Below, piece by piece: positions 1 through 13,661 of a stretch of 32,000 nucleotides of DNA. Both the position numbers and the translations under genes were made by a program. The number at the start of each line of letters is the position of its first letter. Position 1 is the stretch's first letter. The notes beneath the pieces were generated by a model. It was not told the origin of the DNA. It was given only the letters and a program-made list of their open reading frames with translations, and searched no databases. The stretch is from an uncultured Pelagibacteraceae bacterium (GTDB taxonomy: Bacteria; Pseudomonadota; Alphaproteobacteria; Pelagibacterales; Pelagibacteraceae), in assembly GCA_902607625.1 (NCBI GenBank), contig CACLKR010000008.1:12426-44425 (forward strand), in the 5' to 3' direction.

Positions 1-323
1 AAGCTTTGGAAGCACCAATCAGGCAAATAGTTGCCAACGCTGGTGTTGACGGATCAGTTGTCGTTGGAAAACTTTTAGAAGGTAAAAAACCAAGTCAAGG
101 ATATGACGCCCAAAATGAAAGTTACTGCGATATGTTTGTGAAGGGAATTATTGACCCAACTAAAGTTGTTAGAACAGCTTTACAAGATGCTGCATCAATT
201 GCAGGTTTGTTAATTACAACAGAAGCAATGGTAGCTGACAAGCCAGAAGAAAAAGATTCGGCGCCTGCTATGCCTCCTGGAGGAATGGGTGGTATGGGTG
301 GTATGGGTGGAATGGGAATGTAA
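1..323 (+). CDS. groEL: Chaperonin GroEL (Cpn60), C-terminal fragment; the 5' end lies upstream of the window
   Basis: The frame is open from base 3; the track's leading M at 6 is an internal TTG. The sequence ..[41 protein letters not shown].. and the [14 protein letters not shown] tail are diagnostic of GroEL. TAA at 321-323. Confidence 0.95.
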
Positions 324-354
324 TCCCCAATTCTCTCAAACAAAAATTCAAAAA

Positions 355-379
355 GCGCAGTCTTTACTGCGCTTTTTTT
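355..379 (+). terminator. Rho-independent terminator of groEL
   Basis: GCGCAGT-CTTT-ACTGCGC hairpin (355-372) followed directly by T7 (373-379), about 30 nt after the groEL stop. Confidence 0.75.
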
Positions 380-399
380 ATGTCTGCTCTAAAAACATT

Positions 400-440
400 A
401 GTGATGAAGGAGTGATGAAGGAGTGATGAAGGATTTCAAG
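400..440. repeat. Left flanking repeat of the R-M cassette: AGTGATGAAGG x3 in tandem, then ATTTCAAG
   Basis: Perfect 11-mers at 400-410, 411-421 and 422-432. A related block recurs at 3044-3072. Confidence 0.9.
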
Positions 441-505
441 CGTTATACTCGTATTTGTAAGTGCATCGATTCCTAAATATAGTGTAATTATTTCTAAAAT
501 AATAA

Positions 506-1255
506 ATGTTAAATTTTAAAAAAAAAAAATATAGTATAATTAATCTGGATGCTATTACTCTATTAAAAAAAATTCCTGATAATTCTATAGATATTATCGT
601 AACAGATCCTGCTTACTCAGGAATGAATAATCATTTAAAACTTGGCAAAGGTCGAATAATTGGAAAATATAAAGATAAAGGTGAAAAAGGTAAATGGTTT
701 AAAGAATTTGTAGACACAGAAGAAAATTATTCAATTTTTTTGAGTGAATGTTTTAGAGTTTTAAAAGAAAAATCACACATTTTTATAATGTTTGATTCTT
801 ACTCTCTACTTTCTCTAGGTTCATTGGTTAGAAAATATTTTCCTGTAAAAAATATTATAGTCTGGGATAAAGCAATTATTGGAATGGGACATTACTTCAG
901 AAGACAGTCAGAATTTATTTTATTTTCATCTAAAGGAAAAAAACCAATTTCTAATAGATCTACCAATGATGTATGGTCAATTAAAAGAATAGTTAGATCT
1001 AAATATCCCACCCAAAAACCTGTCGAGTTATTTTATAAAATGATATTTGTAAGCAAACTCAAAAATCAAAGAAATTTGACGGTTTGTGATCCTTTCTTAG
1101 GTTCTGGTAGTGCCGCCATTGCTGCTCTTAAACTTAATTGTAATTTCATTGGTGGAGATATTTCAAAAAAAGCAATTGCAATCTCTAAAAAAAGAATTGA
1201 TACGTTTTTAAAAAAAAAAGTTGATATACTTGAGAAAAAAAAGATAAAAAAATGA
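506..1255 (+). CDS. Type II DNA methyltransferase, beta-class (N6-adenine or N4-cytosine)
   Basis: The catalytic-motif-IV-like IIVTDPAYSG is near the N-terminus and the SAM-binding motif I, CDPFLGSGSAAIAA, is near the C-terminus. This IV-before-I order defines the beta class. The size (249 aa) is typical. The stop overlaps the next ORF's start (ATGA at 1252-1255). Confidence 0.85.
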   Translation: MLNFKKKKYSIINLDAITLLKKIPDNSIDIIVTDPAYSGMNNHLKLGKGRIIGKYKDKGEKGKWFKEFVDTEENYSIFLSECFRVLKEKSHIFIMFDSYSLLSLGSLVRKYFPVKNIIVWDKAIIGMGHYFRRQSEFILFSSKGKKPISNRSTNDVWSIKRIVRSKYPTQKPVELFYKMIFVSKLKNQRNLTVCDPFLGSGSAAIAALKLNCNFIGGDISKKAIAISKKRIDTFLKKKVDILEKKKIKK

Positions 1256-2988
1256 AATCACCTTGGAGTTTTCCTACATCTCCTAGATCGCCTTATAAAG
1301 TCATTGAAAGATTAAAACTAATCACGTCTCTTGATGGTAGAGATTATGACAAGAATTTACAAATAGAAATTGGAAAAAGAATTAGAGAGGAGGATGGAAA
1401 TCTAAAAGTAGGATTAAGTTCAAATTCATCAACTTTAGATTTTGTAGGTCGGGATTATATAACTCGCGCACCAAAAAAACTTGGAGTAGTTTATGTACCT
1501 GGTTCAGGAAAAGGAAAGTTTATTATTACAGAACAAGGAAAAAATTTAATTAATTCAAAAAATATGGAATTTGTAATTCAAAGACAAATTGCGAAAATTC
1601 AATATCCTTCGCCTATAAGCGCCAGAGGAACTGATAATATTAAGATAATACCTTTAACAACAATTATAAAAATTTTAAAAAAAGTTAGAGATCTCTCTAG
1701 ATCTGAAGTTATGATGTTTGTAATTACCATAGAAAAATTTACACAAATTAATACAGCAATTAAAGAAATCTTAAATTTTAGAGAAAAACTTAAAAAAATA
1801 AAAGGTAATCTCAAAAGAAAAAAATTTAGACGAGAAACTGGTCTTAAAAAACTTGAATGGTTTTATCAAAATGAAAATCCAAATATTAGAGAAAAAAAAG
1901 GAAAAAAAGTTGATAAGAAAGAATTTTTAAAAACAAAGTTAAACAACCATAAAGATTATGCTGACTCAATATTCAGATATTTTATTGCTACAGGTTTATT
2001 TAAGTTGAATAAAAATTCCAGGTTAGAAATTTCAAAGATTAATGAAAAAGATGCAGATTACTTATTAGAAACTATAGGTTTGGAACCAAAGACATTCGAA
2101 CCTGATGAAGAAAAATATGTAAAAAATTATATGGGAAAAGAAAATTCTATTTCTCTTTTTACAGATAAATTAAGTAATTTAATTAAGAAATTTAACTATC
2201 TCAAGAGGTTGTCATCTAAATTGAAATTAAAGATTAATACAAAAAATATTGAAAATAAATTTAATGAAGAAAAATCATTGGACATTAAGAAGGATATAAT
2301 TGTAGAGTTACAAAAAAGATTTATCTCGCTAAAAATGGAAAAATTTATTAAAAAACTTTCAGAAAGAAATCAAACTGATTTTGATGAAATCTTAAATCAT
2401 TTTGAAGAAATAAGTGATAGAAATTCTGATATTTTAGATAAACCCTTACAATATGAATATAATTTTTTCCGTGCATTTTCATTTATTGGAGATGCTGAAA
2501 AAATAATACCTAGTTTAAATTTTGATGAAGACACCAACCCCTTAAATACAACATCTAATAAACCTGATTTAATAATTGAATATAAAAATTTTATTCTAGT
2601 AGTAGAGGTGACTTTGAGTTCAGGTCAAAGGCAATACGAATCAGAAGGAGCACCTGTCTTTCGACACGTTGGAAAATGTCAAAATGAACATAACAAACCT
2701 GTTTTTGGTTTATTTGTTTCAGAAAAAATGGATGTAAATATGCCAATTGAATTTTTAAGTAGAGCAATGGTCAAAACAAAAATATACAATGGAAGAGTAA
2801 GAATTTTACCCATGGAAAGATCAGATTTTAATCTTTTATTTGAAAAAATTTATAAAAAAAAATTAAAAAGTAATTATTTATTTGATTTGTTTAATAGTTT
2901 TCTTGGAGATAGTGCTTTACTTAAATATCAAGATTTGGGTGAGGAAAATTGGATTAATGATTTTAAAAAAGATTTGTCACTACAATAA
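1252..2988 (+). CDS. Putative restriction endonuclease partner (from memory, possibly AlwI/PleI/MlyI-like family)
   Basis: It is translationally coupled to the methyltransferase. The C-terminal region has KPDLIIEY..VVEVTLSSGQRQYE, a PD..ExK-like core (P438-D439, E452) that lacks the canonical Lys. The N-terminal WSFPTSPRSPYKVIERL resembles the start of AlwI-family enzymes as I recall them. No search was possible. Confidence 0.55.
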   Translation: MKSPWSFPTSPRSPYKVIERLKLITSLDGRDYDKNLQIEIGKRIREEDGNLKVGLSSNSSTLDFVGRDYITRAPKKLGVVYVPGSGKGKFIITEQGKNLINSKNMEFVIQRQIAKIQYPSPISARGTDNIKIIPLTTIIKILKKVRDLSRSEVMMFVITIEKFTQINTAIKEILNFREKLKKIKGNLKRKKFRRETGLKKLEWFYQNENPNIREKKGKKVDKKEFLKTKLNNHKDYADSIFRYFIATGLFKLNKNSRLEISKINEKDADYLLETIGLEPKTFEPDEEKYVKNYMGKENSISLFTDKLSNLIKKFNYLKRLSSKLKLKINTKNIENKFNEEKSLDIKKDIIVELQKRFISLKMEKFIKKLSERNQTDFDEILNHFEEISDRNSDILDKPLQYEYNFFRAFSFIGDAEKIIPSLNFDEDTNPLNTTSNKPDLIIEYKNFILVVEVTLSSGQRQYESEGAPVFRHVGKCQNEHNKPVFGLFVSEKMDVNMPIEFLSRAMVKTKIYNGRVRILPMERSDFNLLFEKIYKKKLKSNYLFDLFNSFLGDSALLKYQDLGEENWINDFKKDLSLQ

Positions 2989-3043
2989 ATGCCACCTTCC
3001 AAAAAATTGTTGTCTTTTGAATTGCTTTGTAATTGCTTGATAT

Positions 3044-3072
3044 AGTGATGAAGAGTGATGAAGGATTTTCAG
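3044..3072. repeat. Right flanking repeat of the R-M cassette: AGTGATGAAG-AGTGATGAAGG-ATTTTCAG
   Basis: Direct-repeat match to 411-440, differing by one missing G and one extra T. Confidence 0.9.
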
Positions 3073-3125
3073 ATATGTTAGATAAAACAATACTTATTGA
3101 TTACCAGTATGAGAATGTAACCCGC

Positions 3126-3803
3126 TTAAATTAATGAATTTAAAAAAGGTCGCAAAGTTGCGGCCTTTTTTTTTGAAATCAATAAACAAGCTTGAGAATT
3201 TAAAATACATCCGTCCTTAAGGACTCTAAGATTATTGTCTTTTAAAGTTTTTCCTGTCGAGGTTATATCCGTAATAATTTCAGAGGATCCAATGAATGGA
3301 TAGGTTTCTGTTGCACCAAGACTTGGTACAAGTTTGTATTGGGTAATTCCTTTTGAAACTAGAAAATTATTAGTTAAATTTGGATATTTCGTTGCAACTC
3401 GTAACCTGGTGTTCTTTTTGTCTCTAAAATCAAAAGAAACTTCCTCTAAATCTGCTACTGTTTGAACATCTATCCAGTCATTAGGAATAGCGACCACAAC
3501 ATCCGCCACACCAAAATCCAGCTTTTTTTTAATTTCAATTTTTTTTTGAAGATTCATCGACGATTCTTGTAATAGATCTAGACCAGATATGCCTACGTCA
3601 ATAGTTTCGTCACCGAGTCTTTGTATTATCTCTTTGGCGTGTAAATAAATAATTTTTGAATTAGGTAAATTATCTATTTGAGCAAAATAATTTCTTTCAC
3701 CTCCATTAGAAGTTGGTTTTAAATTATTTTTTTCAAAAAAACTTATTGAGTCTTCTTTTAATCTTCCTTTGCTTGGCAAACCTATGGTTATTAAATTTTT
3801 CAT
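3126..3803 (-). CDS. hisG: ATP phosphoribosyltransferase, short (HisZ-dependent) form
   Basis: MKNLITIGLPSKGRLKEDSISFF.. is the N-terminal signature of HisG. At 225 aa it lacks the long-form C-terminal regulatory domain. It lies directly downstream of hisZ. Confidence 0.9.
   Translation of the reverse strand: MKNLITIGLPSKGRLKEDSISFFEKNNLKPTSNGGERNYFAQIDNLPNSKIIYLHAKEIIQRLGDETIDVGISGLDLLQESSMNLQKKIEIKKKLDFGVADVVVAIPNDWIDVQTVADLEEVSFDFRDKKNTRLRVATKYPNLTNNFLVSKGITQYKLVPSLGATETYPFIGSSEIITDITSTGKTLKDNNLRVLKDGCILNSQACLLISKKKAATLRPFLNSLI
3142..3174 (+). terminator. Terminator-like hairpin for rightward transcription, embedded antisense in the last codons of hisG
   Basis: A6-GGTCGC-AAAGTT-GCGGCC-T9. 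The stem has a U.G wobble on the + strand transcript but an A.C mismatch on the minus strand transcript. The T9 run is on the + strand. Confidence 0.6.
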
Positions 3804-3805
3804 CT

Positions 3806-4852
3806 TTATAAATTGTTTAAATTAATTGCGGCCCCAACTGCTGAAATATTTTTTTTAGATCCAAGACTTTTCAGCAAACCATCATATCTTCCACCTCTTG
3901 CTATCTCTTTTTTTGATGAGTTATATATCTCAAAAACTATTCCGGTATAATATTCAATATCCCTACCAAAGTTAGTTGAAAAAATAGTTTTAGAATTTAT
4001 TTTTGATAAATTTTTTATAGTTGATAAATCTTTAAAAACGCTGTTGCTTAATTTATTTTTTTTAACAAATCTTTTTAGAGTTTTCTCTAATTTATCAATT
4101 GAACAATTAATTTTTAAAAACTCTCTAATAATTTTCACAATTTTTTTATTTTCTACAAATGATCTTGGGTCTTTTATTTTTCTATCAAATCTAGCCAAAA
4201 TTTCAGAAACTTTACGGCTTGCAATTTCTTTGTTTTGATCAAGATTTTGCATCTCGGTAAATCTTTTTTTATCTAATTCAACTGCCACCGGGTCTACATC
4301 GGAGTTAGTTTCAAGTCTTTTAAGCAAATCTTCAAAATATTGAGGTCTCCAAAAATGTCTTTTCAGTCTCATCTTCCATCTTTCTGGAATTTTTAAAGAC
4401 TCTATCAACTTTTGAAATAAACTTACATCAGCTACTTTAATCGATGTATTTTTTATTTTTATTTTTTTAATTGAATTAGTAATTGTTTTTAAAACTTTTA
4501 AATCATCAGTAGATTTGTTTTTCGAACCTAAAATTTCTATCCCTAGCTGATCATTAATAACCTTGTCTTTTAGGCTATTTGACCTTCTATAGGCTTGTCC
4601 TGAGTAAAAAATTTTTGAATTTACTTTAGAATTACCTTTTAAATATTGTATACAAGAAGCAACCGTCAAATCTGGTCTTAGACACATACTTTTTCCAGTA
4701 TCATCCTCAAAAGTAAACATTAGCTTTCTAAAATTCTCGCCTGATCTTTGAATAATATAATCTGAGTCTAAAAGAACATCTGGTTCTGATAAAACAAAAC
4801 CATCTTTCTTAAAAATTTTTATTATATTTTCAGAGTAATTTTTTGATTTCAT
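3806..4852 (-). CDS. hisZ: ATP phosphoribosyltransferase regulatory subunit (HisRS paralogue)
   Basis: It has a class-II HisRS-like core (..CLRPDLT.., ..ARGGRYDGLL..) but, at 348 aa, no anticodon-binding domain. It sits between hisS and the short-form hisG. Confidence 0.85.
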   Translation of the reverse strand: MKSKNYSENIIKIFKKDGFVLSEPDVLLDSDYIIQRSGENFRKLMFTFEDDTGKSMCLRPDLTVASCIQYLKGNSKVNSKIFYSGQAYRRSNSLKDKVINDQLGIEILGSKNKSTDDLKVLKTITNSIKKIKIKNTSIKVADVSLFQKLIESLKIPERWKMRLKRHFWRPQYFEDLLKRLETNSDVDPVAVELDKKRFTEMQNLDQNKEIASRKVSEILARFDRKIKDPRSFVENKKIVKIIREFLKINCSIDKLEKTLKRFVKKNKLSNSVFKDLSTIKNLSKINSKTIFSTNFGRDIEYYTGIVFEIYNSSKKEIARGGRYDGLLKSLGSKKNISAVGAAINLNNL

Positions 4853-6164
4853 TTGCTAGATCCTCAATTTTAACCGAGCTTTCATTACCAGTTTCAAGAT
4901 TTTTTAATGTTGCTTTTCCAGATTTTATTTCGTCATCGCCATACAAAATAACAGCTGGAGATCCAATCTTATTTGCATACTCCATTTGTTTCTTTAATTT
5001 ACCTTCTCCTGGATAAATCTCAGAACTGATATTTGATATTCTAAGTTTATTTAATATCCCAACATATTCTTTGTTTTTGCTTTTATCAAAAACACATATG
5101 ACTATTGGTCGTACAGTCTTTATTTTAAAATCTTTTTTTTGCATCAAAGCAAACACGAGTCTATCAAGACCAATTGATATGCCAGTTGCAGGACAATCAA
5201 AATTTCCAAAATTGCTTACAAGGTTATCGTATCTTCCCCCTCCGCCTATTGATCCAAATTGAATGGCTTGTCCTTTTAAATTTTTTACCTCAAAATTTAA
5301 ATTTACCTCAAAAATAGGGCCTGTGTAATATTCCAAACCTCGTATAACAGAAGGATCGAATTTGAAATTTTTAAAATTATAATCTTGAAATATTTCAACA
5401 ATTTCTAAAACGTCTTCGCTGTCAGGCGTTTTGCTCTTTAAAGTATTTTCAATTATTTTAACCTGACCACTTTTAAGGTTTGCCCCTTTTGTGTAATCTC
5501 CAGATTTATCTTTTCTGCCTTCTCCAAGAAGTTTCTTTGCCTCTCCCCATCCAAGTCTATCAATTTTATCAAGGGCGCGTAGTGTGGTTGATATTTGGTC
5601 TTTTGATTTAATTTTTAATTTTTCAAATAATTTATCAGTGAATTTTCTAGAAGAAATCTTCACAGTGTAATCTGCCTTATCTAATCCACACCTTTCTAAT
5701 ATCTCAGATATTAATACACAAAGTTCTGCATCGGCTTGTAAATTGTTAGTACCAACATAATCTGCATCAAATTGTAAAAATTCTCTATACCTGCCAGGTC
5801 CAGGTTTTTCATTTCTCCAGACCGTTCCTAATTGATAGCGTTTAAAAGGTCTAGGAAGCTCAAGGTAGTTTTTTGCAACGTATCTTGCCAAGGGAGCTGT
5901 AAGGTCATATCGCAGTGACAACCATTTTTTTTCATCTCTAAAAGAAAATACTCCTTCATCTGGCCTTTCTTTGTCAGGTAAAAATTTTCCAATACTATCC
6001 GTATACTCGAAGCTTGGTGTTTCGAGATATTGAAAACCGTATTTAATCATAACTTCTTTAATATTAGAAATTATGAAATCTCGGGTTAATAATTCTTGTT
6101 CTTGTCTATCTATAAAACCTAAAGGTAATTCCTTAGAGGGTTTTAACTTCTTTTCTTTTACCAT
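4830..6164 (-). CDS. hisS: Histidine--tRNA ligase
   Basis: Class II motifs RYREFLQFDAD and GGGGRYDNLV are present, plus a C-terminal anticodon-binding domain. 444 aa. Confidence 0.93.
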   Translation of the reverse strand: MVKEKKLKPSKELPLGFIDRQEQELLTRDFIISNIKEVMIKYGFQYLETPSFEYTDSIGKFLPDKERPDEGVFSFRDEKKWLSLRYDLTAPLARYVAKNYLELPRPFKRYQLGTVWRNEKPGPGRYREFLQFDADYVGTNNLQADAELCVLISEILERCGLDKADYTVKISSRKFTDKLFEKLKIKSKDQISTTLRALDKIDRLGWGEAKKLLGEGRKDKSGDYTKGANLKSGQVKIIENTLKSKTPDSEDVLEIVEIFQDYNFKNFKFDPSVIRGLEYYTGPIFEVNLNFEVKNLKGQAIQFGSIGGGGRYDNLVSNFGNFDCPATGISIGLDRLVFALMQKKDFKIKTVRPIVICVFDKSKNKEYVGILNKLRISNISSEIYPGEGKLKKQMEYANKIGSPAVILYGDDEIKSGKATLKNLETGNESSVKIEDLANEIKKLL

Positions 6165-6168
6165 TTTT

Positions 6169-6245
6169 TGGTACAGCAGGGTGGATTCGAACCACCGACC
6201 CCTAGTTCCACAAACTAGTGCTCTAACCTACTGAGCTACTGCTGC
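6169..6245 (-). tRNA. tRNA-His (anticodon GUG), CCA encoded, no encoded G-1, discriminator A73
   Basis: The reverse complement is GCAGCAG-TA-GCTC-AGTAGGTTA-GAGC-A-CTAGT-TTGTGGA-ACTAG-GGGTC-GGTGG-TTCGAAT-CCACC-CTGCTGT-A-CCA. This folds as a full cloverleaf (77 nt). Confidence 0.93.
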
Positions 6246-6377
6246 ATAACTCCTTTTTATATTAATTGTTTATAAATTTGTATTTTAAATATGTAATGAT
6301 TTAGCTAAGCAATAGCCTAGCATGTGCAAAATGGTGTTTTGCCTTTGGAAAGTTTATGATTTTTAAATTTTCAATCA

Positions 6378-6415
6378 TTGCTGCAAAGTAACATAAAATT
6401 TTCACTTTGCAACAA
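6378..6415 (-). terminator. 3'-UTR hairpin downstream of the first csp gene; possible terminator without a U-tract
   Basis: On the minus strand, UUGUUGCAAAGU-14 nt loop-ACUUUGCAGCAA forms a 12 bp stem with one G.U. It starts 14 nt after the stop codon. No clear U-run follows. Confidence 0.35.
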
Positions 6416-6429
6416 CAGATTGTATATAA

Positions 6430-6633
6430 TTAAGCTTTTTGTAGATTTACTGCGGAAGGCCCTTTTTCTCCGTTCTCAACTTCAAATGTTAATTCATCAC
6501 CTTCATTCAATTCTATGTTTGCCTCTCTAGCTGCAGAAGAATGAACAAAAACATCTTTTTCCTTATCTTCGCGCTCAATAAAACCATAACCCTTTGTTGG
6601 GTTAAACCATTTTACTTTTCCTTTTATGCTCAT
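6430..6633 (-). CDS. cspA: Cold-shock protein (CspA family)
   Basis: [15 protein letters not shown] (RNP1) and VFVHSS (RNP2) motifs. 67 aa. Confidence 0.93.
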
Positions 6634-6634
6634 A

Positions 6635-6666
6635 TTGTTTACCTTTCTTTTTGTTTACCTTTCTTT
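6635..6666. repeat. Perfect 16-nt tandem duplication (TTGTTTACCTTTCTTT x2) abutting the csp start codon
   Basis: Units are at 6635-6650 and 6651-6666. On the coding strand this reads AAAGAAAGGTAAACAA x2, which duplicates the SD-like GAAAGG. Confidence 0.9.
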
Positions 6667-6778
6667 GTTAATTTAAATTCATTATTAGCTAATCTAACAA
6701 CAAATTTTTTTTGGGACTGTTCAAATAAAATATCTAATAAGTTCTGCCCCAAATTTTATGAAATTTATTGAAATACGA

Positions 6779-6985
6779 TTAAGCTTTTTGCAGGTTTACT
6801 GCGGAAGGTCCTTTTTCGCCATTCTCAACTTCAAATGTTAGTTCGTCACCTTCGTTAAGATACTTAAGACCAGCATCTCTAACCGCGGTATGATGAACGA
6901 AAACATCTTTTTCTTTATCTTCTCTTTCAATGAAACCATATCCTTTTTTCCCATTGAACCACTTTACTTTACCTTTAAGACTCAT
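6779..6985 (-). CDS. cspA: Cold-shock protein (CspA family), tandem paralogue
   Basis: [15 protein letters not shown] and VFVHHT motifs. 68 aa. It is highly similar to 6430-6633 at the DNA level, clearest over the 3' ends. Confidence 0.93.
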
Positions 6986-7041
6986 TTACTCGTTCCTTAG
7001 TTATTAATAATGTATTGTAGAAAATCTACAATAATTCCTCT

Positions 7042-7068
7042 TTAATATATTTAGAACACATATGTCAA
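7042..7068 (-). promoter_or_regulatory. Candidate sigma70-type promoter of the upstream csp gene
   Basis: On the minus strand there is a perfect TTGACA (7068-7063), a 15-nt spacer, then TATTAA (7047-7042). The spacing is suboptimal. Confidence 0.3.
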
Positions 7069-7221
7069 GTTGAAATATAGCTTTTTTAATTTTTTAAAAG
7101 AATACAAAGGTACAAAGCCCAATAGAATTAGTTCAATAAGCATACGATAAAATAAAATAAAAATTGGCACCATTATGATTGTCTTTGAGTATGTCAAGAA
7201 AAGCTTTAAAGCTCAAAAACG

Positions 7222-7297
7222 TGGTGGCCAGGGACGGAATCGAACCGCCGACACAAGCCTTTTCAGGGCTCTGCTCTACCAACTGAGCTACCTGGCC
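7222..7297 (-). tRNA. tRNA-Phe (anticodon GAA), CCA encoded
   Basis: The reverse complement is GGCCAGG-TA-GCTC-AGTTGGTA-GAGC-A-GAGCC-CTGAAAA-GGCTT-GTGTC-GGCGG-TTCGATT-CCGTC-CCTGGCC-A-CCA (76 nt). Confidence 0.93.
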
Positions 7298-7300
7298 TTA

Positions 7301-7516
7301 TTAAAACCTATAAATTATTCTACCCTTTGTTAGATCGTAAGGAGTTACTTGTACCAAAACATTATCTCCGGTCAATATTCTTATTCTATTTTTTTTTAAT
7401 TTTCCAGCAGTGTGTGCTAAAACTTCATGACTATTTTCAAGTTTTACTCTAAACATAGCATTAGGTAATAGTTCTTTTACTTCGCCTTTAATCTCTAAAA
7501 AATCTTGTTTTGGCAA
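7301..7516 (-). CDS. infA: Translation initiation factor IF-1
   Basis: The 71 aa S1-like protein ..[55 protein letters not shown] is near-canonical IF-1. Confidence 0.95.
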
Positions 7517-7596
7517 TTTTAATCCCTTTCGTCTTTTTTATAAAAAAATATATCATAATTCAATATTCAAATTTGGTAAATAAAATTTTTTTTTTG

Positions 7597-8856
7597 TTAT
7601 TTTAATCTTTTAATTTTAGCTCCACAATTAGATAGTTTATTCTCTATTTCCTCATAACCTCTATCTAAGTGATATATTCTATTTAAAATAGTTTTTCCCT
7701 TTGCAACAAGACCGGCTAGCACTAGACAAACTGAAGCTCTTAAATCAGTAGCCATTATCTCGGCTCCATAAAGTTTACTTCCACCATAAATCTTTGCTTT
7801 ATTACCTAAGATTTGAATATGAGCGCCCATTCTTCTTAATTCAGAAACATGCATAAAGCGATTTTCGAAAATATTTTCTTTTATTGTTGAAATTCCTTCA
7901 GCCCTTGTCATTAGAACCATCAATTGAGCTTGTAAGTCAGTTGGAAAACCTGGATATGGTTTAGTTATAACATTAATACTTTTCATTTTTTTTGGACTCG
8001 TAACAATTATATAATTTTTTTTCTTTATTATTTTTACTTTCATTTTGTTTAATAAATTAATTTCAGTGGACATAATTTTTGGGTTAATATTGGTAATCTT
8101 TGTGTCACCATTTGTTAATGCAGCCGCAATGATATAAGTTCCTGCTTCTATTCTGTCAAAAATAACTCTGTGCGTTGTTGATTTTAATTTTTTAACTCCA
8201 AAAACATCTATACTTCTTTTGCCAACTTTATTAATTTTACATCCTAATTTTTTTAAAAAATTAATTAGATCCTGCACCTCTGGTTCTGATGCGCAATTTC
8301 TTAGTTTGGTTTTACCCTTCGAAAAACATGACGCAATTAATATATTTTCTGTAGCACCAACGGATATTTTTGGAAACTTAATCAAACAACCTTTCAAACC
8401 TTTTTTTGCTGAAGCTACAATATATCCATTCTTAACTTTGATTCTTGCCCCCATTTTTTTTAGTGCTTTTAAATGTAAATCTATTGGCCTCTGTCCTATA
8501 GAGCATCCGCCTGGTAGAGACACCTTGGCTTTTCTATATTTTGCTAATAGAGGACCCAAAACCAAAACGCCTGCTCGCATTGTTTTAAGAAGATTGTAAG
8601 GAGCAAATGTCTTTAATGCATTATTGTTAATAATCTCGATTATTTTTTTTCTTTTGTTTAGTTTAACAGATGATCCAATAGCGCTTAGAAGAGTGGTCAT
8701 TGTTTCGACATCATGCACAATTGGTACGTTTTTTATTATGACTTTTTTGTTGGTTAATATTGTTGCAGCAAGTATTGGAAGAGTGGCATTTTTGGATCCC
8801 GAAATTGTTATTGTTCCAGATATTTTTCTTCCACCTTTAATTTCCAATTTCTGCAT
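7597..8856 (-). CDS. murA: UDP-N-acetylglucosamine 1-carboxyvinyltransferase
   Basis: ISGSKNATLPILAA is present. The active-site Cys is in LPGGCSIGQRPIDLH. 419 aa. Confidence 0.93.
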   Translation of the reverse strand: MQKLEIKGGRKISGTITISGSKNATLPILAATILTNKKVIIKNVPIVHDVETMTTLLSAIGSSVKLNKRKKIIEIINNNALKTFAPYNLLKTMRAGVLVLGPLLAKYRKAKVSLPGGCSIGQRPIDLHLKALKKMGARIKVKNGYIVASAKKGLKGCLIKFPKISVGATENILIASCFSKGKTKLRNCASEPEVQDLINFLKKLGCKINKVGKRSIDVFGVKKLKSTTHRVIFDRIEAGTYIIAAALTNGDTKITNINPKIMSTEINLLNKMKVKIIKKKNYIIVTSPKKMKSINVITKPYPGFPTDLQAQLMVLMTRAEGISTIKENIFENRFMHVSELRRMGAHIQILGNKAKIYGGSKLYGAEIMATDLRASVCLVLAGLVAKGKTILNRIYHLDRGYEEIENKLSNCGAKIKRLK

Positions 8857-8867
8857 TAATTTTAAAA

Positions 8868-9422
8868 TTATACTTTTGGTAAAGTGACGCCGATTTGTTT
8901 CATATATTTTCCATTTCTTTTTTCATAGGTTATAGTTGGTTCTTCGTTACCTTTTAAGAAAATAAACTGAGCAGCACCTTCGTTCGCATAAATTTTCGCA
9001 GGAAGTGGTGTAGTGTTAGAAAATTCAAGAGTAACATGACCTTCCCAACCTGGTTCAAGTGGAGTAACATTGACAATTATTCCACATCTTGCATAAGTTG
9101 ATTTACCTAAGCATATAACCAAAATATCTTTTGGTATTTTAAAATATTCTACTGTACTTGCTAATGCGAAAGAATTTGGTGGTATTATACATTCGTCAAC
9201 CTTTCTTGATACAAAACTATTATTTTTAAAATTTTTTGGATCAACTACCGCCGAGTCGACATCTGTAAAAATTTTGAACTCATTTGAAACTCTAGCATCA
9301 TAACCAAAAGATGATAATCCGTAAGAAATTATCTTGCCTTTTTTTTGTTTAGAAATAAATGGACGAATCATTTTTTTTTCTAGAGCCATTTTTTTAATCC
9401 ATCGATCTGATAAAATGCTCAT
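8868..9422 (-). CDS. dcd: dCTP deaminase
   Basis: [12 protein letters not shown].. N-terminus, ..SSFGYDARV.. and ..[12 protein letters not shown].. motifs. 184 aa. Confidence 0.9.
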
Positions 9423-9546
9423 TTGATATTGAATATTTTTTTATTGATTTTGTTTAGAAAAATTTTTCTTTTCTTAAGATTACTTCTTAATGACTTTTCG
9501 ACTCTTTTCTTTCTCAGTTCTCTTTTTGAATTTATTCGCATCCATT

Positions 9547-9750
9547 TTATTTCTGACTTGGATTTGTTAAATCATCTAAAGTTATTGTTTTTTTAATATC
9601 ATGCCTTTTAATTTCTTCTTTTGTTACAGGCGCAGAATCTGAAGACAACAACCTCTTTGCCTTGCGCTGAGCTAGTCTTGCTTTCCGTTTTGCTTCCTTC
9701 AGCATAGCCCTCTCACCTCTTTTTGATTTGTAATCGTAATGTATGCCCAT
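9547..9750 (-). CDS. Small basic hypothetical protein; the true start may be the internal ATG at Met16
   Basis: The 67 aa ORF is visibly more GC-rich than its surroundings. AGAGGTGA lies 7 nt upstream of the internal ATG (MLKEAKRKARLAQRKAKR..). No family is recognised. Confidence 0.5.
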   Translation of the reverse strand: MGIHYDYKSKRGERAMLKEAKRKARLAQRKAKRLLSSDSAPVTKEEIKRHDIKKTITLDDLTNPSQK

Positions 9751-9805
9751 AAATTTTCCATCTATTGATAATAGTTTTTACTTTGTTGTTTACTGTATTG
9801 TCAAG

Positions 9806-10054
9806 TTACTTAAATAATATGGCAATTTTTTGCTTACCGAAAAACTTTATATTTGATAATTCTAATTTTACGGGAGCCATGTATAACTCATTTGGTAAAG
9901 TACTTCCATAATAATGCAAAAGTCGTGTATTTTTATTCAATCTACATTCACTTTGAAACAAGAGAGGATTAAAAAAACGCTCATCATTAACAATTGCTTT
10001 CTGACTTGATCTCATGTTAGTGGGACCGCTGACTACAATTATTGCAGTCAACAT
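9806..10054 (-). CDS. Hypothetical 82 aa ORF, possibly a gene remnant
   Basis: Open frame only. Its last ~20 codons are part of a repeat family also found at 15567-15596 and 16481-16513. No family is recognised. Confidence 0.3.
   Translation of the reverse strand: MLTAIIVVSGPTNMRSSQKAIVNDERFFNPLLFQSECRLNKNTRLLHYYGSTLPNELYMAPVKLELSNIKFFGKQKIAILFK
9827..9872. repeat. Island repeat family, copy A
   Basis: TTTTTGCTTACCGAAAAACTTTATATTTGATAATTCTAATTTTACG. The left part matches copy B with 2 mismatches in 30. The right part matches copy C with 2 mismatches in 33. Confidence 0.85.
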
Positions 10055-10121
10055 ATATACAGATCGTGAGTCAAATTAACTCAAGAATTAATTTGATTTG
10101 TGCGCTAAAAAAAATGTTTAA

Positions 10122-11234
10122 TTACTTCTTTAACAAAATATTTTTAATATCTCTTTTTGTTATTTCTATTGGATTATTAGATAATCTTTGATCATTAACT
10201 CCTGATAATATTTTTGGAAGATTGTCTTTTATGTTAATTCCTAATTTGGAAAAATTATTTTCTAAGCCTGCTCTCAATTTAATTCTATTTATAAAAAGAT
10301 TAAGCTCATTAATATTTAATGTATTAGAAACATTAAATATTTTTTTGTATCTTTTTACTAAATCAAATTTACAATTTGAATGTTGGATATTTTCAAAATT
10401 AAATTTTAAAAAATCATTTAATGTTAAAGATACTGCATGTCCATGACTGATTCCATAGTGAGCTGTAAAAGGATAGGACAATGCGTGAGGAGCTGTAGTT
10501 TTAGATATTGATATTGCTTTACCAGAATAATTAGCAGCCACACACATATTGTATGAATTTGTTATAGTTGGATTTTTTAAATGTTCTAAAAAATATTTAA
10601 GTGAAATTCTTAGAGATTTTAAAGCAAATTCTACACTTTCTTTCGTAGATTTTTTTGAAATAACAGATTCAATAGCTTGTGATATTGCGTCAAAACCCGA
10701 TGAGGCTTTTAAAGTTTTTCCTACTTTTAAAACAAATTCAGGAATTATTATAAAATAATTTGGTTTTAATAGTTCACTTTCAACCGAAAATTTAATTTTA
10801 CCCATATATATAACTGCATTTGAAGTCACTTCAGCTCCTGTACCAGCAGTAGTTGGTATTGCTAAAAGTTTCGTAAATTTTTTAATTTTGCCGTAATCAG
10901 AATTTATAATTTGCTTTGTTAAATTTTTTTCTGGATTAAGAATATTAGCCATTTTAGCATAATCAATTACAGATCCGCCTCCCACTGCTATTATCAAGTC
11001 TGGTTTTATACGCCTGGTATATAAAATTATTTTTTTAAGTTCTTTGATTTCTGGATATTTATTTTTTTTTAATAACAAATAAGTTTCTTTGTCTTTTAAA
11101 ATTTTTTTTATGAGTTTTTCTGCTCCAGAAGCAAAATATGATTTTTTTCCAGAAATAATCAAAATCTTTTTAAAGAGTTTCTGATTTAATAATTTCTTTA
11201 AAGTAGAAAATGTATTATTCGAAAAATTGACCAT
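10122..11234 (-). CDS. Iron-containing (group III) alcohol dehydrogenase; putative phosphonoacetaldehyde reductase yielding 2-hydroxyethylphosphonate
   Basis: VGGGSVIDYAKMA and HALSYPFTAHYGISHGHAV are Fe-ADH motifs. It lies immediately downstream of ppd in the same operon. Confidence 0.75.
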   Translation of the reverse strand: MVNFSNNTFSTLKKLLNQKLFKKILIISGKKSYFASGAEKLIKKILKDKETYLLLKKNKYPEIKELKKIILYTRRIKPDLIIAVGGGSVIDYAKMANILNPEKNLTKQIINSDYGKIKKFTKLLAIPTTAGTGAEVTSNAVIYMGKIKFSVESELLKPNYFIIIPEFVLKVGKTLKASSGFDAISQAIESVISKKSTKESVEFALKSLRISLKYFLEHLKNPTITNSYNMCVAANYSGKAISISKTTAPHALSYPFTAHYGISHGHAVSLTLNDFLKFNFENIQHSNCKFDLVKRYKKIFNVSNTLNINELNLFINRIKLRAGLENNFSKLGINIKDNLPKILSGVNDQRLSNNPIEITKRDIKNILLKK

Positions 11235-11238
11235 TTAA

Positions 11239-12354
11239 TTAGGCTTTAATCATAAAATTTTTCACAATTTTTTTCAAACTACCTGATTTTGGTCTCATTA
11301 AATTAGACATTGATTTGTTTTTTATTTTTATTTCTAAAAAACTTGGCCCACTTGATCTAATAAAATCTTTCATTTTTTTATTTAATTCCTTTTTATTTTT
11401 AATAATAAAGAATTTTTTGTAATTCAAGCTTTTAGTCAAATTTTTAAAATTAATAGTATCAGCATTGGTTAATTGACCTCCAACAGATTCATGAGAATTA
11501 TTATTTAATAAAATGTGTTTAAAATTTTTTTTTGCATATAATCCTGCTGAATTAAGTGAACCAAGATGCATCAATATAGAACCATCTCCGTCTAAACAAA
11601 TTGTTTGATTTTTTGTAAAAAGAGAAGTCCCTAAAGCGACCATTGTTGTGTGGCCCATTCCACCAACCATATAAAAATCATTTCCTTTCTTATAATTTTT
11701 AATTAACCTAATTTGCATTAGTTCCCTTGAAGTAAAACCAACTGTTGAAATAATATTTGTTTTATTTTTTATATTTTGTAGTAAATTTTTAATCACTTCT
11801 TCTCTTTTCAAATTTCTCCTATCTGTTTTTTTCCTTTCTATAGTTTGTTGATTTAAAAGGATATTTTTTTCTATTAGACAAGCGACTGGTTTTTTGTTCC
11901 TTTTTGATATTTCAATAATCCTATTTAATTTTTTTAAATCATTTTTATTTCTCAACAAACAATATTTGATGTCCATTAACTTAAGTAATTCTCTTGTTAT
12001 CTCTCCCTTAACTTTGTGCTGTGGCTCATCTTTAACGTTTGGAGAACCGCGCCAACCTATTAATAATAGCATCGGTATGGAATAAACTTTGCTATGAGCT
12101 ACAGCTATCAATGGATTAATAGCATTTCCTAATCCGGAATTTTGAAGATATACGCACGCAATTCTTTTTGTTGACAAGTAATAACCTATGCCAATTGAAA
12201 TTGCAGATCCTTCGTTTGCTGCAATAATATGTTTGTTTTTTTTTAATTTACCAAAATAATTAGATAAATTCTTTAAAACACTATCAGGAACACCAGTAAA
12301 GAAAGAAACTTTATTTTTTTTTAAGGTATCAAATATTTTTTTTGCTAAAATCAC
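11239..12354 (-). CDS. ppd: Phosphonopyruvate decarboxylase (ThDP-dependent)
   Basis: The N-terminal GVPDSVLKNL.. pyrimidine-binding region and the ThDP motif GGMGH..LDGDGSILMHLGSL..NNNSHES are present. 371 aa. It is adjacent to pepM. Confidence 0.85.
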   Translation of the reverse strand: MILAKKIFDTLKKNKVSFFTGVPDSVLKNLSNYFGKLKKNKHIIAANEGSAISIGIGYYLSTKRIACVYLQNSGLGNAINPLIAVAHSKVYSIPMLLLIGWRGSPNVKDEPQHKVKGEITRELLKLMDIKYCLLRNKNDLKKLNRIIEISKRNKKPVACLIEKNILLNQQTIERKKTDRRNLKREEVIKNLLQNIKNKTNIISTVGFTSRELMQIRLIKNYKKGNDFYMVGGMGHTTMVALGTSLFTKNQTICLDGDGSILMHLGSLNSAGLYAKKNFKHILLNNNSHESVGGQLTNADTINFKNLTKSLNYKKFFIIKNKKELNKKMKDFIRSSGPSFLEIKIKNKSMSNLMRPKSGSLKKIVKNFMIKA

Positions 12355-12356
12355 AA

Positions 12357-13661
12357 CTAAATAAGATTTATTACTTCATTAATTGAACTTATTTTTTTTT
12401 CGGCCTCAAAAGACCTTTGGTTTTTTAAAATCATTTTGGCCACATTCAATATAGCTGGGTGAATCGCTCTTAAAAAATGATTTGCGTAAATAACAACTTT
12501 AAATCCATTATTAATTAACTCATGTTCGTAAGTTCTTGAATATGTAGAAGGAACAGCTATTAAAGGTTTAAAAAACTTACTCTTTGAAAAATTTTTGGAA
12601 AAGGAAAAAATTTGATTAGGATATTTTTCTTTGCTATGAATTAGTATTGCATTGGCTCCAGCTTGTGAATAAGCCTCGGCTCTACGCATTGCATCTTTCA
12701 AATCTTTTCCAAGTATAAAGCTCTCGATCCTAGCAATAATAAATAGATCGTCTGAAATTTTTGCCTCTTTTGCTTTTTTTAATTTTTTACAAAAGTTTTC
12801 TATACTATCTTGTTTGACACCTACTTGGTTTTTAAAAAGTGAATTTCTCTTTAAACCAACTTTATCCTCAATAACCACTGCAGAAATACCAACTCTTTCT
12901 AAGGTTCTAATTAAGTAAGAAATATGTTCAATTTTTCCTCCATTGTCAGCATCAAATATTATTGGTTTCGTAGTCACGTCTAAGATTTCATTTAAGCCTA
13001 AAATTCTTGTAGAATAGTCCACAGCTTGGTTGTCTGGTTTACCTCTTATTGCAGAATCTGTTAAGCTCGAAGACCACATTCCATCGAATTCTAAAAAATT
13101 TTTATTTTTTATTAATTTTAAATTTTCAGCAATTAGTCCAGTAAAAGCATTGTGTGATTCGATAATTCTTACAATTTTTTTTGCATCAATTAATCTTTTT
13201 AATTTTGATTTCCTGGTTTCTGGTGAAGTGCCCAACTCAATAATTTTATTTTTGATTTTGGAAGATGATATATTTTTAGTATACTTAGGTTCGACTAGTT
13301 TGCCTGACCATTTTTTTAAAGTTTTGATCACTTGTTCTCTTATTTTTTTTTGAATACCAAATTTCCAGTCATCTCCGTGTACTACGTAATGAGGTTTTAT
13401 AGACAATAAGTTCTTTGTATAATCCAATGAATCTTGCGGCAAAACTTTTTTTACCAATTTAATATTCTTTAAAACTATTTCACGTTGTTTGTAGTTGAGA
13501 TGAGGTAGTTTTTTATATGAAGATATAGCTGAATCGGTTAACAAGCCAACAGTAACTTCGCCAAGTTTACTTGCTATTTTTAAAATATTTATATGACCTT
13601 CATGTAAAATATCTGCGGCAAAACCTACGTAAACTTTTTTTATATTTTTATTTTTTTTCAT
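12357..13661 (-). CDS. pepM: Bifunctional cytidylyltransferase-like domain / phosphoenolpyruvate mutase
   Basis: The N-terminal ~140 aa carry VGFAADILHEGHINIL (HxGH) and ..KNISSSKI.. (RTxGISTT-like). The C-terminal ~290 aa carry ..WSSSLTDSAIRGKPD.., ..FDADNGG.. and VIEDKVGLKRNSL, which matches the PEP-mutase signature EDKxxxxxNS. Confidence 0.9.
   Translation of the reverse strand: MKKNKNIKKVYVGFAADILHEGHINILKIASKLGEVTVGLLTDSAISSYKKLPHLNYKQREIVLKNIKLVKKVLPQDSLDYTKNLLSIKPHYVVHGDDWKFGIQKKIREQVIKTLKKWSGKLVEPKYTKNISSSKIKNKIIELGTSPETRKSKLKRLIDAKKIVRIIESHNAFTGLIAENLKLIKNKNFLEFDGMWSSSLTDSAIRGKPDNQAVDYSTRILGLNEILDVTTKPIIFDADNGGKIEHISYLIRTLERVGISAVVIEDKVGLKRNSLFKNQVGVKQDSIENFCKKLKKAKEAKISDDLFIIARIESFILGKDLKDAMRRAEAYSQAGANAILIHSKEKYPNQIFSFSKNFSKSKFFKPLIAVPSTYSRTYEHELINNGFKVVIYANHFLRAIHPAILNVAKMILKNQRSFEAEKKISSINEVINLI

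Follow-up and report, generated by a model that had tools for sequence, protein, structure and literature searches.

A restriction-modification cassette between groEL and hisG of a Pelagibacteraceae genome as a probable non-autonomous element of a groEL-targeting tyrosine-integrase family

To our knowledge, the SAR11 bacteria have long been described as nearly free of mobile elements, and their flexible islands are usually ascribed to homologous recombination. The island analyzed here is a small restriction-modification (R-M) cassette between groEL and hisG in a 32,000-nt stretch of the genome of an uncultured Pelagibacteraceae bacterium (contig CACLKR010000008.1); this whole stretch is called the window below. 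A survey of SAR11 islands recovered no canonical mobile elements (PMC11796062), and no attC sites were seen in the SAR11 hypervariable regions (Wilhelm 2007, PMC2217521). Cassette islands linked to tRNA and tmRNA genes have been reported for SAR11 (PMC11796062; mentioned in PMC11876622, PMC10872708), integrase-associated elements and phage satellites, the VEIMEs (integrative mobile elements encapsidated in virions), are already known in Pelagibacter (PMC9618062, PMC11876622), and the integrative and mobilizable elements (IMEs) with their integrase-less derivatives have been reviewed (PMC5704250). In the literature we found no description of an attachment site at the groEL end or of the repeat arrays that characterize this island.

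Based on the comparisons presented here, positions 324-3120 probably (at around 0.7) represent a non-autonomous integrative cassette of 2.8 kb that belongs to a groEL-targeting tyrosine-integrase family, has kept both attL and attR intact and carries arrays of 11-nt repeats as arm-type sites. That recombination at the core is site-specific is the firmest element of this reading and very probably correct. The cassette would have been inserted into the last groEL codons via an 8-nt crossover core, GAATGTAA. Because the core has the same sequence as the end of groEL, insertion restores the gene, and a second core copy comes to lie beside hisG. The three 11-nt repeats of the left arm and the two of the right arm would be bound by the integrase through its N-terminal domain. 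Excision of the cassette, in circular form, would take place only if that enzyme is provided by another element of matching repeat type in the same cell. Re-insertion could take place at any GAATGTAA core, either the groEL end or the junction of a resident cassette, and successive insertions would build tandem arrays of cassettes.

The closest parallels are found among the lambda-type elements, whose heterobivalent tyrosine integrases use core-type as well as arm-type sites and whose attP consists of a P arm, the core and a P' arm. The groEL-site elements share with these a tyrosine-recombinase fold with an extra N-terminal domain (according to a model of the integrase), a short identity core that is duplicated at both ends of the cassette, direct-repeat sites located tens of nucleotides from the core on both sides in 3 + 2 arms, and an integration that regenerates the 3' end of the target gene. 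They differ in that they target a protein gene (groEL) at its stop-codon region and not an intergenic site or a tRNA, and in that the two-site arm is contiguous and has int beside it. Moreover, the elements are 0.6-9 kb in size, lack phage structural genes, have an integrase family that is absent from IMG/VR, and possess arm sites that are predicted from sequence.

The cis-mobilizable elements (CIMEs) of the Streptococcus ICESt1/ICESt3 family and integrase-less mobilizable islands likewise have functional-looking attL and attR around cargo that includes no recombinase, are presumed to move via a related resident element, and show tandem accretion at one att site. Unlike these, the groEL cassettes are very small (often a single gene) and very numerous, display several repeat specificities at one core, have no conjugation or mobilisation genes that we could see, and reside in a streamlined free-living oligotroph. 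The tycheposons of Prochlorococcus also are tyrosine-recombinase islands of a streamlined marine bacterium, with repeated insertion at one gene end and partial target repeats between cassettes. They are set apart by a tRNA/tmRNA target, whereas the groEL elements have conspicuous tandem arm-repeat arrays and mostly consist of units without a recombinase; the integrase family seems to differ as well. Finally, VEIMEs (PMC9618062) are small tyrosine-integrase elements integrated in Pelagibacter genomes, some of which encode HNH endonucleases and rolling-circle-type replication functions, as is reminiscent of the HNH/HIT protein and the weak RepB-RCR_reg match in one groEL-site element (L181). In contrast to VEIMEs, no packaging or capsid-related genes were seen in the groEL elements. 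The autonomous ones may belong among the VEIMEs and integrase-associated elements, to which they are likened here by description.

The features of the locus are, from left to right in the window:

1-323 (+): groEL 3' end (PF00118, E=7e-14), left flank; attB, the target on the chromosome, lies in its final codons
312-323 (+): left core copy ATGGGAATGTAA, last groEL codons and stop; putative attL crossover region
324-399 (+): leader part of the T1-type left end module, including an intrinsic terminator (stem-loop at 350-377 plus T-run)
400-410, 411-421, 422-432 (+): three copies of AGTGATGAAGG in perfect tandem, 11-nt period; putative arm-type integrase-binding sites of attL
433-440: ATTTCAAG, directly after the left array
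506-1255 (+): N6/N4 DNA methyltransferase gene (PF01555)
1252-2988 (+): gene of an AlwI / N.BspD6I-family type IIS restriction (or nicking) endonuclease (PF09491, 2ewf)
3013-3043 (+): start of the right end module, tandem 11-nt pair GAATTGCTTTG and TAATTGCTTGA
3044-3053 and 3054-3064 (+): right array, AGTGATGAAG and AGTGATGAAGG; putative arm-type integrase-binding sites of attR
3065-3072: ATTTTCAG, directly after the right array
3065-3108 (+): spacer block ATTTTCAGATATGTTAGATAAAACAATACTTATTGATTACCAGT between arm sites and core, conserved and aligned across 8 loci
3109-3120 (+): right core copy ATGAGAATGTAA, duplicated groEL end and attR core
3121-3125: ancestral 5-nt groEL-hisG spacer CCCGC, which in the empty sites L012 and L013 makes up the entire spacer
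3126-3803 (-): hisG (PF01634), right flank

The cargo of the cassette is predicted to be a type II R-M system of the AlwI / N.BspD6I family. The methyltransferase (249 aa) matches PF01555 over the full profile length (E=3e-26), and the endonuclease (578 aa) matches both PF09491 (E=9e-48) and the PDB entry 2ewf of N.BspD6I (E=2e-37 across residues 3-538). The pair comprises one methyltransferase only, which is small. An earlier, sequence-only reading of the window had described the repeat blocks on both sides of the R-M pair, and on rereading these were exactly as claimed; it had also stated that the methyltransferase and an open reading frame (ORF) overlapping it by 4 nt are the sole content between the blocks, which the profile matches (N6_N4 methylase and AlwI endonuclease) bear out. 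Its proposal of a discrete islet that could enter or leave between two core genes is likewise supported, the R-M pair being a mobile accessory cassette at a hotspot, and the different cargo it anticipated between the same repeats in relatives was amply found, in groEL-site inserts and in around 70 metagenomic contigs. The boundaries of the islet, the role of the repeats and the verdict on the mechanism, by contrast, had to be revised.

To define the boundaries, we used 59 SAR11 loci collected through hisG, 53 of which also contain the groEL end. The groEL C-terminus of the window is 83-95% identical to those of the 53 loci, and its hisG is 91-96% identical to that of Pelagibacteraceae (SAR11) single-cell genomes. 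In 36 of the 53 loci the stops of groEL and hisG are 4-6 nt apart (e.g. CCCGC, TCCCAA). These empty sites read ...GGAATGTAA followed by the 4-6 nt and the hisG stop, and their spacers contain no AGTGATGAAGG, no ATTTCAG block and no terminator. The other 17 loci have inserts of 0.6-5.3 kb with unrelated cargo, including lipoproteins, MORN-repeat proteins, glycosyltransferases, a znu/zur operon and other R-M systems. Considering the fact that 36 of the 53 relatives lack the motif in their spacer, the repeats arrive with the insert and are not resident in the target. An empty site with a single AGTGATGAAGG..ATTTCAG block, as expected by the sequence-only reading, was never seen; that reading had itself named motif-free spacers in cassette-free relatives as evidence against it.

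The same reading held the DNA outside the repeat blocks to be unrelated, and overlooked a second direct repeat (family D20), present as ATGGGAATGTAATCC at 312-326 and as ATGAGAATGTAACCC at 3109-3123. Its consensus ATGrGAATGTAA, at 312-323 and 3109-3120, corresponds to the last groEL codons, and its invariant part is the 8-nt GAATGTAA (316-323 and 3113-3120). The right junction of the window reads ...CCAGT ATGAGAATGTAA CCCGC TTA, the last triplet being the hisG stop. Given that this is a copy of the groEL end followed by the ancestral spacer, the insert relative to the empty sites comprises 324-3120. The core was encountered in the versions ATGGGAATGTAA, ATGAGAATGTAA, ATGCGAATGTAA and GTGTGAATGTAA, all of which have GAATGTAA in common, and the same core is present at every cassette junction. 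Comparison of 59 right modules showed that the core is invariant and that directly beyond it there are at least 15 different continuations, hisG being one of them.

The most direct evidence for the unit is that it occurs in a second context. The identical endonuclease was found on four more contigs (L209-L212), from different samples and assemblers, which are 99.8% identical to the window across exactly 313-3120 (2,808 nt). To the left of the cassette these contigs do not have groEL, but the right module of a different cassette (C-type, with TCAATGAA-type repeats and ending in GTGTGAATGTAA), and to the right they have a different left module (T2) followed by a DUF2779 gene. Beyond the core there is no homology with the window on either side, and the arrays lie well inside the conserved unit. 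The unit thus runs from core to core, with the arrays inside it, and not from repeat block to repeat block as was previously thought.

A replacement-type flexible island, kept by homologous recombination only and with the modules as regulatory DNA and the integrase as an incidental passenger, would be an alternative, albeit an improbable one. SAR11 shows high recombination and exchanges islands via flanking homology (PMC4033161; Wilhelm 2007, PMC2217521, for the hypervariable region HVR2), the modules of 108-127 nt could support exchange and cassette shuffling, and left arrays are missing in many cassettes. Yet the two contexts of the R-M cassette share no outside DNA (groEL versus the C-type module, and hisG versus the T2 module), and in the absence of flanking homology homologous recombination cannot have produced these joints. 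Moreover, the groEL end is duplicated at every right junction, which is a signature of site-specific recombination, the orientation of the cargo varies, implying that the arrays are not cargo operators, and the integrase abuts the module in three clades.

The terminator at 350-377 (terminator scan match; RNA fold -15.8 kcal/mol, z=-4.0) had been taken for that of groEL itself. It is kept in L036, L051, L003, L113 and many more contigs and is absent from the 36 empty sites; it therefore belongs to the insert and replaces the natural terminator of groEL. The latter is likely to be a stem-loop with U-run (GGTCGCAAAGTTGCGGCC followed by T9) at 3148-3174 on the + strand, within the last hisG codons (-17 kcal/mol, z=-4.4), which is conserved beside the 4-6-nt spacer in the empty sites and is the only terminator-like structure after groEL there. 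The element would carry a terminator for groEL because the insertion parts groEL from the natural one inside hisG. Placing a terminator within the coding sequence of a convergent gene is an economy typical of a streamlined genome.

A different arrangement was observed in L004 and L006, where the groEL-hisG spacer (~1,970 nt) holds the gene of a 620-aa GTPase with a TypA/BipA-like N-terminus (MNNSIRNITIIAHVDHGKTT). At its 3' end this gene continues, without a frame change, into what remains of the Gly-Met tail of groEL (~50 nt), beside the ancestral spacer. As this duplication is much longer than the 12-nt core, it suggests a different kind of event.

A search for the AGTGATGAAGG pattern with at most one mismatch gave 6 matches in the 32 kb, 5 of which are the array copies; dinucleotide shuffling predicts 0.27 matches, and none of 100 shuffles reached 6. 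Within 657 kb of SAR11 loci the motif is confined to this island and always on the groEL strand. In blastn comparisons the window falls apart into a left module (310-436), a cargo segment (439-2967) and a right module (3013-3120). L093, L159 and L165 carry the right module at 98% identity beside other cargo, many further contigs with unrelated cargo have it at 81-94%, and both modules are 82-98% identical to those that flank or adjoin the integrase-bearing elements discussed below. The left array is found at a fixed offset of around core+88 in dozens of contigs and the right array 65 nt upstream of the core in all modules; the ATTTTCAGATATGTTAGATAAAACAATACTTATTGATTACCAGT spacer block occurs in two sequence variants of constant length. 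The GAATTGCTTTG/TAATTGCTTGA pair, a counterpart of which is also present in B- and D-type modules, is a possible site for an accessory protein of the excisionase type.

A metagenome scan for two adjacent repeat units, in which contigs with a GC content below 0.34 were considered SAR11-like, yielded the ~70 SAR11-like contigs with the same end modules around other cargo, as well as unrelated high-GC matches. The junction in these contigs and in the genomes has the following layout, with fixed distances:

x: flank with tandem pair of GAATTGCTTTG-like units
x+29: two-copy array
x+60: conserved spacer
x+94: core ATGAGAATGTAA
x+137: terminator
x+181: two- to four-copy array

The islands consist of cassettes in tandem series with junction modules between them (L003, L009, L014, L051, L112, L166, L181). 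The cassettes mostly contain one or two genes, and their cargo is found in either orientation. In many of them (L009, L020, L091, L109, L139, L155) the core is followed by a different left module, designated T2, that reads TACGwTTCC..GAACACTCTAAA..AGAACCC and continues into a stem-loop with T-run; it has no tandem array and is paired with an A-type right module. Many of the metagenome matches with a GC content above 0.35 were discarded as unrelated repeats, some being GTGATGAAGGG runs beside a conserved ...CCCGATAAACACAGGGGA... from gut and other samples. One such family, which is not from SAR11, has runs of the GATGAAGGGT unit, some 20 nt after which come a conserved ...CCTCTGAAACCCCGATAAACACAGGGGATT... 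stretch and additional GATGAAGGGTGAAGGG (L061, L063, L067, L075, L092, L096, L106, L151, L156, L160, L163, L170 and L174; GC 0.37-0.50; from gut and other metagenomes).

Related elements at the same site suggest a mechanism, which the sequence-only reading had left unexplained: they encode a lambda-like tyrosine integrase adjoining the same right-end module. When 333 ORFs of the islands were screened with regular expressions for signatures of serine or tyrosine recombinases, none matched, because the integrase is too divergent; it was identified by clustering and inspection of the island ORFs, as a protein of 402-406 aa in L084, L112 and L154. Its Pfam matches are weak (PF00589, E=0.003; PF13102, E=0.006), as is its match in a profile search against PDB sequences (XerC-like 4a8e, E=0.025), and its motifs GFRPG...R, TKT, IRHTYAT and VYLGH fit a tyrosine recombinase. 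An AlphaFold (AF2) model with a predicted local distance difference test score (pLDDT) of 82 has an N-terminal domain of three strands plus a helix, and all 52 significant matches of this model to PDB folds were tyrosine recombinases, full-length lambda Int (1z1b) being the best, followed by XerA, Tn1549 Int, XerH and Cre, with IntI at around place 34. On the basis of motifs, weak Pfam matches and predicted fold, the protein is a divergent lambda-like tyrosine integrase, encoded in the related autonomous elements only. The family has 467 members in public data, several of them in Pelagibacter genomes.

Integrase-bearing elements were recovered on L084, L181-L185 and L202-L208. Between the integrase stop and the right module there are 0-6 nt in L084 as well as in L202-L205, 12 nt in each of L182-L184 and ~45 nt in L206-L208. 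The locus of L181 (element at 3458-12439), a Pelagibacter genome, has the order groES-groEL, core, terminator, three tandem repeats, ~9 kb, two tandem repeats and core, the ~9 kb containing small ORFs, genes for the HNH/HIT protein, a resolvase and a 220-aa protein, as well as int and a single cargo gene. The elements contain no phage structural or packaging genes. Among IMG/VR viral contigs the integrase family has remote matches only (21-26% identity), and scans of IMG/VR with the right-module end and both array forms gave a single match (L060), a chance occurrence in a higher-GC coding region.

The integrase elements have a gene set in common, made up of a serine recombinase (small, PF00239, encoded on the opposite strand), a protein of 206-220 aa without Pfam match, one or two small ORFs or an AAA protein, and then the integrase (L181 8134-11209; L184 1250-5114; L198 5802-9221; L202 316-4374). 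L181 furthermore has around 700 nt of non-coding DNA after the left array, in addition to its weak RepB-RCR_reg match, and an element of this type may have a plasmid- or satellite-like stage (cf. VEIMEs, PMC9618062). One integrase clade (L112 4126-5346, L154 3863-5083 and L198-L201 8001-9221) is 66% identical to the L084 type. Its L154/P0034 members were considered for the A type and rejected, as the nearest module is that of a separate DUF2779 cassette and no array adjoins.

The attP site of lambda has three adjacent arm sites, P'1-P'3, in one arm and P1 and P2 in the other. The same 3-left/2-right layout is found unchanged across the integrase clades in spite of different repeat sequences: the clade of L084 and P0004 goes with AGTGATGAAGG (A type), the integrases P0059, P0069 and P0099 go with AGTAATGAAC, and P0111 goes with TTGATGAACAA/AGATGAACAA. 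In all nine cassettes that are bounded by two cores and have both arrays, the left and right array types agree (six A-A, two B-B and one C-C), while hybrid modules also occur where one cassette joins the next (L120, L122), which implies that the arrays belong to the element and not to the site. Comparison of A- and B-type integrases shows that the N-terminal domain is the most diverged part (45-51% identity versus 60-72% elsewhere). Taken together, these data make it reasonably probable that the 11-nt arrays are arm-type sites for the N-terminal domain of the integrase.

Several observations weigh against the proposed integrative cassette. The cassette, as the sequence-only reading had correctly stated, contains no recombinase, nor does the 32-kb window, and neither a circle nor a molecule with attP only was recovered for the R-M cassette; a contiguous right module-core-left module was seen (e.g. 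L113 60-290), which is equally explained by the junctions of tandem cassettes. Arrays at both ends are not universal, as many cassettes have the array-less T2 left module; these cassettes may be decayed, immobile remnants, or left-arm sites may not always be needed. In the L154/P0034 integrase clade there is no adjacent right module, and the L112 copy runs directly into a T2-type terminator. The metagenomic contexts of L209-L212 could in principle be assembly chimeras, although four assemblies from different samples agree and multi-cassette arrays also occur in single-cell genomes. A hybrid joint in L166 (~1820-1900) and L132 (~2536-2610) consists of the right-module flank, a two-copy AGTGATGAAG array and the sequence that follows a left array, without spacer, core and terminator. 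This resembles the outcome of a deletion, through recombination or slippage involving a right array and a left one, that fused two cassettes, and it means that recombination across arrays also happens occasionally, but this does not delimit the R-M cassette. As to the repeats, the integrase-to-repeat assignment derives from three clades only, the N-domain identity does not separate A- from D-type integrases, and other element genes (the 216-aa protein and the resolvase) co-vary with lineage, so that the repeats could bind one of their products.

The latter point leads to an explanation in which the cassette is site-specific and the arrays bind another protein of the element: an excisionase or directionality factor, a replication initiator (in which case the repeats would be iterons from a satellite or plasmid-like stage) or else the small serine recombinase. 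The autonomous elements always carry the resolvase, the conserved 216-220-aa protein and small ORFs beside int, these genes follow lineage in the same way as int, and the identity of the N-terminal domain tracks the array type incompletely; the RepB-RCR_reg match and the non-coding stretch of L181 would fit an initiator. Nevertheless, the arrays are located on both sides of the core at fixed distances and in a 3+2 arrangement, and they are retained in cassettes without a replication gene. In addition, the modelled integrase has an N-terminal beta-sheet-plus-helix domain and full-length lambda Int as its best fold match, the GAATTGCTTTG/TAATTGCTTGA pair is separately available to an accessory factor, and resolvase sites are inverted half-sites rather than 11-nt direct repeats. 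We therefore consider binding by another protein unlikely.

Even less credit is due to the idea that the AGTGATGAAGG blocks themselves are the crossover sites, and that the islet moves by recombination between arrays and leaves a single array in the spacer. The arrays are indeed direct repeats that bracket the cargo, the L166/L132 hybrid is the product one would expect of array recombination or slippage, and the homology of the cargo with R-M copies at the tmRNA site (see below) begins 7 nt after the array. However, an empty site with a single array does not occur, all 36 empties having a motif-free spacer of 4-6 nt, L209-L212 keep both arrays and lose identity at GAATGTAA, 77-84 nt outside the arrays, and in 59 modules the point of divergence is the core and not the array, so that for the R-M cassette this idea is already contradicted. 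An integron-like system, working through folded single-stranded attC-type sites, hardly deserves consideration: tandem arrays of small, promoter-poor cassettes of mostly one or two genes, each with a conserved recombination module, and a trans-acting tyrosine recombinase are reminiscent of integrons, but the junction module folds as single-stranded DNA into the terminator hairpin only and not into an attC-like end-pairing hairpin, the repeats are direct and the cargo orientation is mixed, the integrase fold is closest to lambda Int, XerA and Tn1549 Int and not to IntI, and the target is a gene end with a duplicated core. Exploitation of the host XerCD system, as by integrative mobile elements exploiting Xer (IMEX), was considered given that ATATGTTAGAT resembles the XerD arm of dif (9/11 positions), and was dropped since the module has a dedicated integrase directly beside it and shows no evident XerC arm.

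The R-M cargo is not restricted to the groEL site. Pairs that are 82-83% identical to that of the window at the nucleotide level were found by blastn in other SAR11 contigs without the groEL-site modules, and in L186 (5240-9031) and L192-L196 such homologous cassettes lie beside the tmRNA gene (Rfam RF01849; L186 8732-9031, and a 3' fragment at the end of L193). They are flanked by the tandem repeat ACTTCATTGAG (2+1 copies left and 3 right) and by GGGGCGTTCTGTT direct repeats, and the homology with the window covers the segment 439-2967. An example of the repeat regions at this site is:

L193 200-340 and 3040-3180: tmRNA-site repeat regions

Given this homology, one set of defence genes has found its way into cassettes that belong to two different site-specific systems. 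Just downstream of the endonuclease gene, L193 (2903-2991) also has a sub-threshold match to the Rfam SAR11_0636 sRNA (36.5 bits, gathering score 67, E=0.001), a stretch that is absent from the window. In the window itself, an Rfam scan recovered two tRNAs only and no match at the repeats. These genes, tRNA-His and tRNA-Phe at 6169-6245 and 7222-7297 on the minus strand, lie at a distance of 3-4 kb from the cassette. Within this window they have neither an island nor a partial tRNA repeat associated with them, and they were set aside as unrelated to the cassette.

Tentatively, and with less confidence than we attach to the cassette itself, one may extend the findings to a system: SAR11 would run a lambda-type cassette-accretion system at the groEL stop codon and a parallel one at tmRNA, in which integrase specificities that differ by arm repeat (AGTGATGAAGG, AGTAATGAAC, TCAATGAAG, GATGAACAA) share the 8-nt core and mobilise integrase-less cassettes in trans. 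If true, a large pool of one- and two-gene cassettes would carry defence systems, surface proteins and transporters, and the system would be an analogue of the integron in function and lambda-like in mechanism, and a major path by which accessory genes flow through the most abundant marine bacterium.

For SAR11 biology, the groEL locus offers a concrete, sequence-defined mechanism for part of the flux through its islands, with an 8-nt target in an essential gene, recognisable end modules and a dedicated integrase family, on which many recombinase-less cassettes appear to ride. The insertion between abutting convergent genes of a streamlined genome is handled by a terminator borne on the element. 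As the end modules are searchable, cassette cargo, including defence systems, can be catalogued across ocean metagenomes and its turnover measured, and the variation in repeat type between integrase clades forms a natural series for the evolution of arm-site specificity. The mechanism as such is textbook, but owing to its host and target, the many integrase-less cassettes and the occurrence of several repeat specificities, the locus is a useful handle on SAR11 gene flux, one apparently undescribed so far.

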